IMG/VR virus record: IMGVR_UViG_3300043414_000189
Span: 1 to 35,575 of that record
Length of the DNA: 35,575 nucleotides
Strand: one strand, 5' to 3'
Origin: a virus
Lineage: Duplodnaviria > Caudoviricetes
In this document: piece by piece, positions 8,057 to 17,990 of the stretch
Position numbering within the stretch: the first letter of the stretch is position 1
How the letters are laid out: the number at the start of each line of letters is the position of its first letter
Notes under the pieces: generated by a model
The model's database searches: none
Told to the model about the DNA's origin: nothing
The model's input: the letters and a program-made list of their open reading frames with translations, nothing else
Translations under genes and position numbers: made by a program

Positions 8057-8983
8057 ATGGCTTTTGCCAATAGCTCGATCAGCGACATCATTGCGACCAA
8101 CATTCAAAGTCGTTCTGGTGAGCTGGCCGACAACGTAACAAACAACAATGCGCTTCTGCGCCGCCTCAAAGAACGCGGTAACGTGAAAACTTTTTCCGGT
8201 GGTAACGTAATCTTGCAAGAGGTTATGTACAACGACAGCACGACCAACAACACGAATTCTTATTCGGGTTACGAAGTGTTGAACGTCAGCCAAAACAGCC
8301 CGATCAGTGCGGCACAATACGGCATTACGCAATACGCTGCTGCGGTTTCGATCAGCGGTCTGGAAATGATCCAGAACAGCGGCAAGGAAGCGATCATCGA
8401 CCTGCTTGACGGCCGTATGAACGTTGCTGAAGCGCAACTGGCTAACCGTATCGGTGGCGATATTTATCTTGATGGTACGGGAAACTCCGGTAAGAACATC
8501 ACCGGACTGGCAGCTGCTGTGCCAGATAGCCCAACCACAGGCACTTACGGTGGGATTAACCGCGCTACGTTCTCATTCTGGCGCTCGGTTTCTTTCTCTG
8601 GTGTAACAACCGGTGGATCTGCTACTTCAGCATCGAACATCCAGCAGTACATGGATTCGGTTGCTGTGCAGCTGATTCGCGGAACCGACAAGCCGGATCT
8701 GATTGTTGCTGATAACAACTACTACCGTTTGTATCTGCAATCGTTGCAGTCGATTCAGCGTATCTCTGATTCGGGATCTTCGATGGCCGGTGCGGGCTTT
8801 GCTTCGCTGAAATATTACGGCGCTGGCATGGCTTCCGACGTTGTGCTTGACGGCGGTATCGGTTCGGCGGCAACTGCAAACCATATGTGGTTCTTGAACA
8901 CGAAATATATTTTCTTCCGGCCGCACGTTGACCGGAATTTCGTGCCGATTGGCGGCGAACGGCAAGCCGTAAACCAAGACGCT
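8057..8983 (+). CDS. Major capsid protein, exon 1 (309 codons, ends ...RQAVNQDA)
   Basis: Strong SD TAAGGAG; LADNVTNNNALL start and capsid-type sequence. The unspliced frame stops at 9001, five codons into the intron. Confidence 0.88.
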
Positions 8984-9223
8984 AAACCTACTTTGCATTA
9001 AATGGCGTCTATAAACCTTCTCTGATTGACTTGGAAGCCCGGAAGCGGGCGACAGGGCGCAAGCGAAAGCAGCGTGAACGACTAAGTGAGAGGGGCGCCG
9101 AAAGGTGCATGCGATAGTCTGAACACTGGTATAACTTTATTGAAGCCAGTGAGGGAGATCCGAAGCGGTTTCCCCGCCATCGAAAGATGGTCAGTAAGCC
9201 GAAAGGCTGAAAGTAACAGAATG
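8984..9223 (+). ncRNA. Group I self-splicing intron (240 nt, no homing endonuclease ORF) in the major capsid gene
   Basis: 5' exon ends in U. P1: AGACGCU (8977-8983)/GGCGUCU (9004-9010) with a U.G pair at the splice site. P3: CCUUCUC/GAGAGGG. P7: GACUA (9080-9084)/UAGUC (9115-9119). P5, P6, P8 and P9 hairpins, several with GAAA loops. Terminal G at 9223. Removal restores the frame. Confidence 0.9.
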
Positions 9224-9298
9224 ATTGTTAAGCTGATTGGGTGGGCGGGCAACATGTGCGCTAGCGGTCCGCAGTTTAGCGGTGTTTTGATCGCTTAA
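9224..9298 (+). CDS. Major capsid protein, exon 2 (IVKLIGWAGNMCASGPQFSGVLIA*); spliced product 333 aa
   Basis: In-frame join gives ...NQDA|IVKLIGWAGN..., a typical capsid C-terminal beta region. Confidence 0.85.
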   Translation: MVKLIGWAGNMCASGPQFSGVLIA

Positions 9299-9902: not shown

Positions 9903-11204
9903 ATGGATATAGAAATCATTTGTAATACTAACGATGACGAATTATTTGCCAACGTTAAACTGAATTCTCGATCATGCGATCGCTGGATCGCCGAGGTTCC
10001 CGCGCACGATGGCCATGCTGTCATTGTTGGCGGTGGACCGTCTGTTGTTGACCAGCTTGACATGATCCGCAAACGGCACGCGCTAGGGCAAAAGATATTT
10101 GCTCTTAACGGCGCTGCCAAATTTTTAAACAAGAACAATATCGTGCCGGAATACCAGGTCATTCTTGACGCACGCCCCGGCAATATTGATTTAATCGGCA
10201 AAGCTGACGAGTATTTGATTTCTAGCCAGTGCCATCCTGCGCTGTTTGATGCCGTCGAAAACATTACCACTTGGCACCCAGCGGTTGATGGTTTGGACGC
10301 GCATTTGCCTGACTATGATGGCGAGTTTGCAATGGTCGGCGGCGGCACAACGGTTGGCCTGTCAACGATGTGCCTGGCTTACACAATGGGTTACCGAAAG
10401 CTGCATCTGTTTGGCTATGACTGCTCGCACCGCAATGCGATGGGTCACGCCTACAAACAGAAAATGAACGACAACGACGTTCTTTGCAAAGTGACGGTGA
10501 ATGGCAAAGTATTTACCAGCTCGCTGACAATGGCGCGGCAGGCCGAGCTGTTCCCGCAGGTTTGCAATAATCTGATGGATCTCGGGTGCGTAATCACAAT
10601 CGACGGTGACGGGCTAATTAAAGAGGTTGTAGCCGATATGCGCCGAAATGCCGTTCCAATGGCCGAGGACGAGAAATACCGGAAAATGTGGTCAATTCCG
10701 GCTTATCGTGACACCGCACCAGGCGAATTGATTGCCGAAACCTTTGTCAAGGTTGCCAATATCACAAAAGAGCAGAAAGTGGTGGATTTTGGTTGCGGAA
10801 CAGGCCGTGGAAGTAAGAAAATACACGAATTGACCGGCGCCACAATGCAGATGGTCGACTTCAGCAACAATTGCCTGGACTCGAATGTGACGTTTCCCCT
10901 GCTCATTGCCGATCTGACAAAGCCCATTGCCGCCACCGGTGATGTGGGCTATTGCACCGACGTGATGGAACATATCGCGCCCGAGAACGTCGACACCGTT
11001 ATCAAAAATATTATGGATTGCGTCGAATCGGCGTTTTTCCAGATCAGCCTTGTGCACGACAACATGGGTGCGTTGATCGGCCAGCACCTTCATTTGTCTG
11101 TTTTCCCCTATGCTTGGTGGTCAAATAAGTTTAAGGAATACCGCATTCTCTGGTCAGATCAAGATGCAATTAATGCAGTTTTTTATGTAAAAAAGGAGAT
11201 TTAA
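9903..11204 (+). CDS. MptE/DUF115 (Maf-like) domain fused to a class I SAM methyltransferase
   Basis: N-terminal IVGGGPS, ALNGA, GGTTVG, GYR.LHLFGYD; C-terminal VDFGCGTG and CTDVMEHI. Confidence 0.75.
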   Translation: MDIEIICNTNDDELFANVKLNSRSCDRWIAEVPAHDGHAVIVGGGPSVVDQLDMIRKRHALGQKIFALNGAAKFLNKNNIVPEYQVILDARPGNIDLIGKADEYLISSQCHPALFDAVENITTWHPAVDGLDAHLPDYDGEFAMVGGGTTVGLSTMCLAYTMGYRKLHLFGYDCSHRNAMGHAYKQKMNDNDVLCKVTVNGKVFTSSLTMARQAELFPQVCNNLMDLGCVITIDGDGLIKEVVADMRRNAVPMAEDEKYRKMWSIPAYRDTAPGELIAETFVKVANITKEQKVVDFGCGTGRGSKKIHELTGATMQMVDFSNNCLDSNVTFPLLIADLTKPIAATGDVGYCTDVMEHIAPENVDTVIKNIMDCVESAFFQISLVHDNMGALIGQHLHLSVFPYAWWSNKFKEYRILWSDQDAINAVFYVKKEI

Positions 11205-15374: not shown

Positions 15375-17301
15375 ATCGTCACCATCAGCACCGCCGCCAC
15401 CGGATTACGCAGGCGCCGCTGTCGCACAGGGTGCAGCAAACGAAGCCACTGCTCGATTACAAGGCCGGATGAGCAATCCAAATGTGATTGGTCCGTTGGG
15501 CAGCCAGACGGTGACTTTTGGTAATAATGATCAGCCGACCGTAACGCAAACACTGACACCGGCCGCACAGTCCACCCTGGACGCACAGCAGCGCGTACAG
15601 CGGGCTTTGGCAGGGCTAGGTGAGCAAGGTATCGGAACGGCCAGTAACGTGCTGGGGAACGCGTTTAATCCAAACCTTGCGGGCTTGCAGACCAATATCG
15701 GCAATGCTGGGCAAATCCCGCAAACACCGGATCTTGGTAGATATGGCCGAGCCACCGGAAATCTTGGTAATGATAATTTGGAAAACCCAGAAATTACAGC
15801 TAAATTTGCTGCGCTCAGAGCTGCTGGAATGGGTCCACAACCATCTAATCAGGCTAGCGGAAATCTTAGTGGTGATGATATTGCTGGTGCCACAACTGAT
15901 ATGACAAGAGGCAAAAACACACCGCCTCCATCTACCGGGTATGCAGACGGACCTTTGCGGGCGCCAGAACTTAGCGCGTATGGCATGGCAGGATCTAACG
16001 TCAACGCGCAGCCGGTGAACGCCGGACCGCAAAGCGGTCAGTATGGGATGGCAGGTGCAGGCCCACAGGCTGGACAATATGGATTTGCGGGCGGTGGTCC
16101 TGGCGGTGGGCAATACGGGCTGGCAGGTGCAAATGTGCAAGCTGGTGCAATCAATCAAGGACCGCAAACAAACCAATATGGGCTTGCCAGTGGTGCTTTG
16201 AACACCAGCAACATAGCAGCAATGCCGGTGAACGCAGGTATGACCGGCCAGCAGGCAATTATGAACCGCTTGGCGCCACAGCTTGAAAGAGCAGATGCAT
16301 CAACGCGGCAACGATTAATTAATCAAGGTTTGGTGCCGGGTGGCGAGGCGTACGAAAACGCCATGATTTCCCAAAACCAGCAAAAGAACGATCTGCTCTC
16401 GCAGGCGGCGTTGCAGGGCATTGGCTTGGACACTGCGGCAAACGCGCAGGGATTTGGCCAGGCGTTGCAAGCGGGGCAATATGGCAATCAAGCGGTAGCG
16501 CAAAACTTCAGCCAAGCGCAGGCCGCACAAGCCGCACAAAATGCCGCTCAGCAGCAAGGATACGCACAACAATTCGGGTTGGCTGGATTACAAAATCAAG
16601 CCGTTGGCCAGAACTTTGGTCAAGGCGTTACTGCACAACAATTGCAGAATGCTGGGATTGGGCAGAATTTTGCTCAAGGTCAAGCCGCAAACGCTGCTGG
16701 AAATCAAGCGGTGGGGCAGAATTTCGGTCAAGGACTGGCCGCACAGCAAGCGCAGAATGCCGCCTCGCAACAGCTCTACAATCAATATATGGGTGTGCAG
16801 GGATTGCAGAATCAAGCTGTTAATCAGAATCAACAGGCGGCATTGGCTCAATATCAAGCGCAGCTCGGTGGTCAGCAGCAAGGTTTTGGACAAAATGTCA
16901 CGCAGCGGCAGCTTGGCAATCAAGCCATTGCACAAAACCAACAAGCCGCATTGCAACAGCAGCAAGCCGCACTGGCCGCGCAGAATCAGCAATACAACCA
17001 GCTTTTGCAAGGCGCACAGTTTGGCAATACTGCCCAACAGCAAAGTTTGGCGCAGCAGCTCGCGTTGCGGAATCAACCGCTGAACGAGATCGCCGGTCTG
17101 ATGGCTGGCTCGCAGATCCAGATGCCGCAGTTTCAGGGCTATCAAGGGTCAAACATTGCGCCGGCACCAATCTTTGCAGGGGCGCAGGCGGCAGGGCAGT
17201 CTGCGATGGACCAATACGGCATCGCATCGTCAAACGTCAACGCGCAGAATGCCGGGCTTTATAACTTGGCAGGCACCGCAGGCATGGCGGTTGCGCTCTA
17301 A
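15367..17301 (+). CDS. Internal virion / DNA ejection protein, Q/G/N-rich
   Basis: MGKSSPSAPPPPDY start; repeats of GPQ.GQYG.AG and NQAVGQNFGQG. Confidence 0.7.
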   Translation: MGKSSPSAPPPPDYAGAAVAQGAANEATARLQGRMSNPNVIGPLGSQTVTFGNNDQPTVTQTLTPAAQSTLDAQQRVQRALAGLGEQGIGTASNVLGNAFNPNLAGLQTNIGNAGQIPQTPDLGRYGRATGNLGNDNLENPEITAKFAALRAAGMGPQPSNQASGNLSGDDIAGATTDMTRGKNTPPPSTGYADGPLRAPELSAYGMAGSNVNAQPVNAGPQSGQYGMAGAGPQAGQYGFAGGGPGGGQYGLAGANVQAGAINQGPQTNQYGLASGALNTSNIAAMPVNAGMTGQQAIMNRLAPQLERADASTRQRLINQGLVPGGEAYENAMISQNQQKNDLLSQAALQGIGLDTAANAQGFGQALQAGQYGNQAVAQNFSQAQAAQAAQNAAQQQGYAQQFGLAGLQNQAVGQNFGQGVTAQQLQNAGIGQNFAQGQAANAAGNQAVGQNFGQGLAAQQAQNAASQQLYNQYMGVQGLQNQAVNQNQQAALAQYQAQLGGQQQGFGQNVTQRQLGNQAIAQNQQAALQQQQAALAAQNQQYNQLLQGAQFGNTAQQQSLAQQLALRNQPLNEIAGLMAGSQIQMPQFQGYQGSNIAPAPIFAGAQAAGQSAMDQYGIASSNVNAQNAGLYNLAGTAGMAVAL

Positions 17302-17990
17302 TGCTTGGACTTGCTTTTTCTGGTGGTAAGGATTCTCTGGCTTGCTGGTATTTATCCAAGCATCTAAATCCTGTTGTTTTGTGGGTAAATACTGGCACAG
17401 GCTATCCAGAGACATTAGAAATTGTAAATGAAATAAAAAGCCAAGCATTTCAATTTGTAAAAATTAATTCTGATAAGCAAAAGCAAAATAATGAATGGGG
17501 TTTGCCATCGGATATTGTGCCAATTCATTTCACAAATACTGGAATGCAAATTAGTGGCATCAAACCCATAAAAGTGCAAAGTTATTTAGGATGTTGTTAC
17601 GAAAACATAGCAAATCCGTTGATGCAAAAATGCAAAGAAATGGGCATTACTGAATTGATCAGAGGACAACGATTAGACGAAAGTTATAAATCGCTTGCAG
17701 TTAATGGCTCAATGGTTGATGGCATTAAGTTTTTGCAGCCCATTGAAACGTGGAAAAAACAACAAGTTTTAGATTATTTGCTAGACCAGCGCGGCAGTTT
17801 GCCAGAACATTATTCGATAGATCATTCAAGCCTTGATTGCTATGATTGCACTGCGTTTTTAGAGCATTCAGCAGATCGGATTGCGTGGACAAAACAGCGT
17901 CATCCTGACCTTTACGAAATATATTCTAAAAAAATGGACGCACTGAAAATGACCTTAAAACCCAGTCTAAATGCAATGGGGATGATATGA
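17301..17990 (+). CDS. PAPS reductase-family (PP-loop) protein
   Basis: AFSGGKDS PP-loop, NTG..YPE, CC, RGQR..E, SSLDC..CT; AT-rich relative to its neighbours. Confidence 0.8.
   Translation: MLGLAFSGGKDSLACWYLSKHLNPVVLWVNTGTGYPETLEIVNEIKSQAFQFVKINSDKQKQNNEWGLPSDIVPIHFTNTGMQISGIKPIKVQSYLGCCYENIANPLMQKCKEMGITELIRGQRLDESYKSLAVNGSMVDGIKFLQPIETWKKQQVLDYLLDQRGSLPEHYSIDHSSLDCYDCTAFLEHSADRIAWTKQRHPDLYEIYSKKMDALKMTLKPSLNAMGMI

Follow-up and report, generated by a model that had tools for sequence, protein, structure and literature searches.

Why does the reading frame of a phage major capsid gene close early, with a capsid-like tail resuming in the DNA downstream, and what, if anything, does the DNA in between do for the phage? 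The window considered here is the whole virus record, 35,575 nt of podophage type, with terminase, portal, capsid, tail, ejection and lysis genes followed by replication genes. Its capsid reading frame (8057-9001) encodes 314 aa and ends in NQDA-KPTLH*. An earlier, sequence-only reading attributed this early stop to a compact group I intron and proposed that a spliced gene would encode 333 aa instead. The virion region of the same genome also holds a homologue of a starvation-inducible regulator (95-508), a fusion of MptE-like and methyltransferase parts (9903-11204) in place of which relatives such as L356 have two genes that are separate or shorter, and a gene with a PAPS-reductase domain (17301-17990).

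The capsid gene and its insert

The first part of the gene (exon 1, 8057..8983, plus strand, 309 codons) encodes a major capsid protein of the Mx8/BUCT555-like podophage type, 51% identical to those of Myxococcus phage Mx8 and Stenotrophomonas phage BUCT555. Residues 3-309 match the major head protein profile PHROG 9953 over positions 4-304 of 329 (E 1e-96), and NF033394 is matched at 270 bits (cut-off 80) over positions 2-285 of 311. Both matches stop short of the end of the profile, which indicates that some 25 residues are missing, the length of the downstream tail. That tail (exon 2, 9224..9298, plus strand) comprises 24 codons plus a stop and is contiguous with NQDA in intron-less alleles; joined to the 309 codons of exon 1, it gives 333 aa, exactly the length of 120/120 best listed database relatives of an intron-less allele. 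Both lengths given in the sequence-only reading are therefore borne out.

Comparison with other alleles defines the insert directly. Among the best 80 of the 598 capsid relatives in the part of IMG/VR that we scanned, NQDA runs straight into an IVKLIG-type tail in 73, as the capsid alignment proposed earlier had anticipated, and the remaining 7 carry a homologous insert of 231-239 nt at the identical codon boundary. Our family model R1 detects exactly those 7 alleles and no others among the 80. All four GenBank phages examined are contiguous across the site, and so is the window's nearest sister (98% aa identity), which lacks the intron. The insert is a 240-nt, phase 0, ORF-less group I intron (8984..9223, plus strand) that splits the Mx8-like major capsid gene between codons 309 and 310; exon 1 ends in U at 8983, and the intron-less alleles fix the position of the intron's terminal G at 9223. 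A search of the window genome with R1 returned no second copy.

How much does the interrupted tail matter? V311, G318, N319 and S323 are invariant in 111 capsid proteins with identity down to 36%. For an intron-less relative, two AlphaFold predictions reached mean pLDDT values of 33 and 42 and were discarded, and a PDB profile search returned just a weak capsid match (E 0.016) that did not cover the tail. The probable role of the last 24 residues is argued from their conservation. Translation of unspliced RNA would yield the 314-aa product without this conserved tail, which is likely to be defective as a capsid protein.

Ribozyme fold, predicted splice sites and probable splicing

The region folds more stably than any of 200 shuffles (z = -4.34), and the coordinates, helices and exon ends of the sequence-only reading could all be found again in the sequence. 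P1 pairs the end of exon 1 with the intron's guide over 7 bp (8977-8983/9004-9010), placing U8983.G9004 at the 5' splice site. Only 5 nt separate P1 from P3, in keeping with the earlier remark that there is no obvious P2, and the 240 nt contain no endonuclease ORF, again as had been noted. P3 (9016-9022/9088-9094) encloses P4 (9030-33/9053-56), P5 (9037-41/9046-50) and P6/P6a (9058-64/9069-74, with P6 at 9058-60/9072-74); P4 and P6 are additions to the helices first proposed. The P7 pseudoknot (9080-84/9115-19) gains a further pair, A9078-U9120, with C9079 bulged, and its G9080-C9119 pair is the predicted guanosine site, which we assume by analogy with known introns. P8 (9095-99/9104-08) is followed by J8/7 (9109-9114). 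The P9 domain (9124..9223) folds into four hairpins (9124-51, 9153-74, 9177-90 and 9197-9208), as proposed earlier, and ends in a conserved GUAACA motif and the terminal G9223. A possible 3-bp P10 (9001-9003 with 9224-9226) can be drawn from the sequence; the raw P10 potential ranges from 0 to 7 bp over 30 exon contexts.

Covariation across the family supports this structure. We reduced 123 distinct complete copies to 84 representatives at 90% identity and aligned 50 of them. Across the P3-P9 core, 98.1% of 1708 cells are paired (35 named pairs in 50 members), against 38-47% in slid controls, and two-sided changes occur in 23 of the 35 pairs, a level reached by none of 500 shuffles. The structure was drawn from the aligned sequences themselves, which favours the paired fraction but does not account for the compensatory changes in P3, P6 and P7. 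Pairs with two-sided changes number 5/7 in P3, 1/4 in P4, 4/4 in P5, 4/5 in P6/P6a and 5/6 in the first P9 hairpin. P3 is paired at 99.4% and P8 at 100% in the 50 sequences, the P4-P5-P6 scaffold at 96-100% (P4 having just 4 standard pairs), and P7 is fully paired in 50/50, one of its pairs exchanging A-U for G-C in 8. The window copy retains every one of the core pairs. Only 3 nt lie between P7 (which ends at 9084) and P3' (which starts at 9088), leaving no P7.1/P7.2; the same spacing holds in all 50 aligned members, but it was required by the search pattern.

The exon boundaries of the family point in the same direction. By protein homology we placed 64 junctions from 125 introns tried, with the 3' terminal G imposed, and exon 1 ends in U at 50 of the 64. 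For 30 contexts, the window included, that had U junctions and a strong template and were taken one per flank (a few share a codon with different flanks), the guide pairs with its own exon over a mean of 5.9 bp, compared with 3.0 bp in 858 swapped exon/intron pairs; a P1 of at least 5 bp forms in 23/30 true pairs versus 113/858 swapped ones. The guide thus appears to have been re-adapted to each new exon, as selection for splicing predicts. At the window's own site, 27/27 distinct intron-plus alleles have A at -7 and U at +3, versus 44/64 and 23/64 of intron-less alleles, respectively.

RNA evidence came from the contigs of 4 of 22 listed sequencing runs (18 of the 22 being RNA, none with half of the query words). 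Intron-covering contigs in the RNA run X1 are indistinguishable from DNA. Joined contigs in X2 (RNA) and X20 (run type unknown) were considered as a spliced junction and rejected, because they carry three other letters at the junction, which fit an intron-less relative, and because one occurs in a run of unknown type.

Group I introns are removed by a guanosine-initiated, two-step reaction (the general mechanism as outlined in PMC3984707). By this chemistry, guanosine bound in P7 would attack after U8983, held in P1, and the end of exon 1 would then attack after G9223, joining codon 309 to codon 310. The intron would in this way leave the late capsid transcript by self-splicing and restore the 333-aa major capsid protein, possibly with help from proteins. 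The retained fold and the matched guide indicate that the intron is very likely functional, and we hold with good confidence that the insert is a probably self-splicing group I intron that restores the full capsid protein and that, rather than a switch, it is probably a selfish element of near-neutral effect.

An optional element and how it could spread

An intron at this same site was found in 82 IMG/VR loci, with capsid identity down to about 55%. Contig ends truncate 2 of these copies; the other 80 are complete and span 231-248 nt, not enough to encode a nuclease. On a tree of 106 alleles, from which the last 99 nt of exon 1 were left out and whose intron-plus side was enriched by targeted search, presence and absence require at least 14 state changes. 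Shuffled states give a mean of 27.7 and a minimum of 21, so much of the inheritance appears to be vertical. Tip neighbours nonetheless differ in intron state, including the window and its neighbour L005. In the 15 nearest plus/minus pairs, which involve 5 distinct intron-less sisters, no sister ends exon 1 in GCT, and in the closest pair 9/800 distal bases differ versus 5/60 at the junction. Differences concentrated at the junction, together with the lost GCT codon, point to DNA exchange carrying short flanks. Precise loss through cDNA as the origin of the intron-less sisters is disfavoured, given that 0/5 keep the GCT codon. An optional intron gained and lost among near-identical alleles fits a selfish element, and a tolerated selfish element is what the window intron most likely is.

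We propose that this ORF-less intron moves between co-infecting phages by DNA recombination with short exon flanks, probably helped in trans by homing nucleases that cut the capsid gene, and that new sites are probably reached through rarer ectopic insertion. The part of the window's ORFs that was scanned contains no homing nuclease, no nuclease that cuts the intron site was identified, and none of the 80 complete same-site copies encodes a homing endonuclease, which some family members at other sites do.

A nuclease gene does lie close by in some relatives. In all 10 loci found with it, a free-standing HNH_3 gene directly follows a capsid gene of this family, and 2 of the first 80 loci have it there. 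These HNH_3-HTH genes lie after the capsid stop at L350:8-502 (minus strand), L415-L424, L050 and L051, even at 37% capsid identity (L424), and at +60 of the last exon the alleles with the HNH have a rare Gly codon in common, which is a candidate for an immunity mark in intronless homing. Could this HNH and the ORF-less intron have one target site in common and travel together, the collaborative homing described in PMC3984707? The two elements do meet at the same capsid 3' end, one contig (L350, the same as L415) holds both, and HNH-plus alleles lie among intron-plus alleles in one clade. They are nevertheless mostly apart: 9/10 HNH loci are intron-less, and an HNH occurs in 1/82 intron loci and not in the window. 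The base enriched with the HNH (7/8 vs 2/64) sits at +60 of exon 2, 60 nt away from where the intron inserts, so an intron there would probably leave the target open to cutting. The HNH may give the intron a lift, but neither the co-occurrence nor the +60 signature follows the collaborative-homing pattern, and we regard paired spread as unlikely.

The sequence-only reading raised the prospect that splicing gates capsid production, with low GTP, low Mg2+ or temperature slowing the reaction, favouring the 314-aa product and reducing virion output. The conservation of the tail in every relative examined and the concentration of the family in virion genes (59/69 copies) suit such a gate, and C. 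difficile has a group I intron that is regulated (PMC3984707). A gate is hard to reconcile, however, with an intron that is absent from 73/80 close alleles with the same gene order and that is gained and lost among near-identical ones; no aptamer-like extra domain or sensor element is seen in the 240 nt, and the capsid intron of phage LittleE yields normal capsid protein (PMC3706429). We find conditional gating quite improbable, and less plausible still is a dead or non-splicing relic, with the phage either making do with the 314-aa product or building a two-piece capsid by re-initiating translation at the AUG that the final three bases of the intron form. An ATG does lie in frame before the tail, at 9221-9223, the RNA contigs examined hold no splicing signal, and Rfam returns no match. 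The core pairs of the window copy are nonetheless intact, with compensatory changes through the family, P1 tracks each exon, and 38 distinct introns at this site all retain the terminal U and G (the U being required by the search pattern). The preferred reading remains a tolerated selfish intron that probably splices.

A lineage concentrated in virion genes

The window intron belongs to a sizeable lineage. We located 65 viral loci by a 25-nt core motif and, in the part of IMG/VR scanned, 125 by a degenerate P7-P8-P7' pattern, from which we estimate about 810 in the collection; the core pattern also occurs in 50 stretches of GTDB genomes, mostly short MAG contigs, of which 5 (L289, L294, L302, L311, L312) are on contigs binned as archaea. 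Members are mostly ORF-less and occur in cultured phages as well. Long inserts between P4 and P7 are present in 11/78 copies. Two of four antisense ORFs tested in family introns are LAGLIDADG, and the copy in a cultured Desulfovibrio phage has an HNH. Six N4-like capsid introns (L163, L179, L206, L217, L221, L232) carry antisense, single-motif LAGLIDADG-like ORFs in the P6 region, and in L146 the P8 region contains a sense ORF of 198 aa that has no Pfam match.

Host genes could be read for 69 distinct copies with a readable flanking frame among the first 80 loci of the P7-P8-P7' search. Major capsid genes hold 50 of them: 26 in N4-like, 10 in Mx8-like and 8 in P22-like capsids, 4 in a distant podophage family labelled below the profile cut-off, and 2 in others. 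Tape measure genes hold 6, portal genes 3 and a reductase gene 1, and 9 are in no assigned gene; these are raw counts, unweighted by gene or phage abundance, with labels taken from representatives. A 2025 paper still describes as mysterious why phage group I introns favour genes of nucleotide synthesis and DNA metabolism (PMC12350094), and this lineage shows the opposite bias.

Several further sites are worth recording. In the Mx8-like capsid, family introns also occur at residues 53 and 60, and L125 (about 500-745, reversed locus) has an IA-like intron with extra hairpins after P7 at residue 83 in an allele that also carries the site-309 intron. In L097, an N4-like capsid gene has two family introns close to its 3' end, with about 54 nt of exon between them. 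Ribonucleotide reductase genes hold family introns at L151:2001-2200, L152:2002-2206 and L297:1098-1319 (R1 101-121 bits); the carriers are the cultured Roseobacter phage CRP-118 (OR420741, intron near 35.0-35.3 kb), whose record does not annotate the intron, a Desulfovibrio phage, whose reductase gene has the intron with the HNH ORF plus an apparent intein, and Tepidiphilus succinatimandens DSM 15512. Targeting of conserved sites was rejected as a general rule: site 309 lies at the 96th conservation percentile of the capsid, but three other occupied sites lie at only the 17th-50th.

In the distant podophage capsid family, one intron (L176) occupies the NADA boundary, homologous to that of site 309, and has an identical 7-nt guide, and another (L099) sits one base further on. 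Several introns per gene (L176, L099, L175) cluster together in the intron tree, suggesting within-gene spread. A quick tree groups the L176 intron with introns of its own gene family (96% SH-aLRT), which disfavours common descent with the site-309 intron and weakly favours independent colonisation.

Family model R1 scores the window intron, which was in its training set, at 186.7 bits. A search with Rfam RF00028, suggested by the sequence-only reading as a check, did not bear it out: the window gives no match even at E<=10, and neither do five loci holding family members. RF00028 scores three introns of Staphylococcus phage Twort at 64-101 bits and the LittleE and BAKA introns at about 30 bits; published work notes that this model and the existing subgroups give poor coverage of phage introns (PMC11878797, PMC6125680). 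Conversely, R1 gives weak matches, with rough E-values, to the BAKA and LittleE introns and to all three from Twort; each match lies at the true position, and the elements P3, R, S, P9 and the 3' motif are correctly ordered. The family is homologous to proven phage introns yet distinct from them: P7.1/P7.2 are missing, its 4-bp P4 is preceded by two additional bases, and its J8/7 differs. P4 departs from the Twort pattern in being short, with 4 standard pairs and an invariant A.G.

P7.1/P7.2 between P7 and P3' are a defining feature of subgroup IA. P7.1 is listed among class features in PMC3984707. Their absence appears to set the family apart from subgroup IA, including IA2, and suggests a new group I subgroup. 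No published description of the lineage was found in the literature searched, which included few subscription papers; the intron tables that accompany PMC12880540 and PMC11835236 may list members.

The most far-reaching interpretation makes the window intron the type member of an undescribed, virion-gene-specialised subgroup, marked by the missing P7.1/P7.2, a remodelled J3/4-P4 and a J8/7 of AUGCGA, mostly without nucleases, that has occupied dozens of sites in at least four capsid families and one codon boundary twice independently. We put this forward tentatively and consider it doubtful as a whole. Were it true, the supposed preference of phage introns for DNA-metabolism genes would be overturned, and the lineage would be the best natural system in which to test whether introns transpose at the RNA level, by reverse splicing into whichever late mRNA is most abundant, or are mobilised in trans; reverse splicing is described as without direct experimental support in PMC3984707. 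Short of that, the lineage is of moderate interest, as a large, Rfam-invisible group that is structurally distinct from IA2 and biased to virion genes. Its many sites and cultured carriers offer material on how ORF-less introns reach new sites, and, at 190-280 nt, its members are compact ribozymes whose guides vary naturally. For annotation, the consequence is that Rfam overlooks an element splitting the capsid genes of a widespread phage group, whose capsid proteins are therefore recorded as truncated or fragmented.

The Twort introns, which we take to be subgroup IA2, offer a close structural comparison. Like the window intron, they are compact, ORF-less, late-gene introns in a virion gene (NC_007021, about 16.6-17.6 kb), and they share the P3 lead-in, the R and S elements, the P9 hairpins and the GUAACA..G end. 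Unlike it, they have about 90-105 nt extra around P7 (the P7.1/P7.2 region), a J3/4 two bases shorter and a different J8/7.

The sequence-only reading regarded a capsid gene as an unusual place for a phage intron, a view that does not hold in light of published examples. The LittleE major capsid intron has a spliced junction demonstrated by RT-PCR and virion N-terminal sequencing, and the ORF-less, 265-nt BAKA intron was shown to splice by RT-PCR (PMC3706429). Together with the BAKA/Optimus tail intron, LittleE resembles the window intron in being a virion-gene, group I-type intron with an exon-end U and an intron-end G that is optional among sisters (PMC3706429). BAKA matches R1 weakly (17 bits) and has P3, P7, P9 and the 3' motif in common with the window family. 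Both belong to another lineage, with a long insertion between P3' and J8/7, a different J8/7 and RF00028 matches (E 2e-4 and 9e-4); LittleE also has an antisense nuclease ORF and an HK97-like capsid in a siphovirus. In Lactococcus phage Tuc2009 (NC_002703), a group I intron likewise splits the major head protein gene (PMC3706429), but it carries an HNH ORF and gives no R1 match. The crAss-like phages similarly have group I introns in their major capsid genes, several per gene, although these were recognised through the endonucleases that they encode (PMC7886860). Short phage introns have also been seen spliced in metatranscriptomes (PMC12880540). Set beside these known capsid-gene introns, the window intron is ordinary as a kind, and the lineage to which it belongs is the more interesting part.
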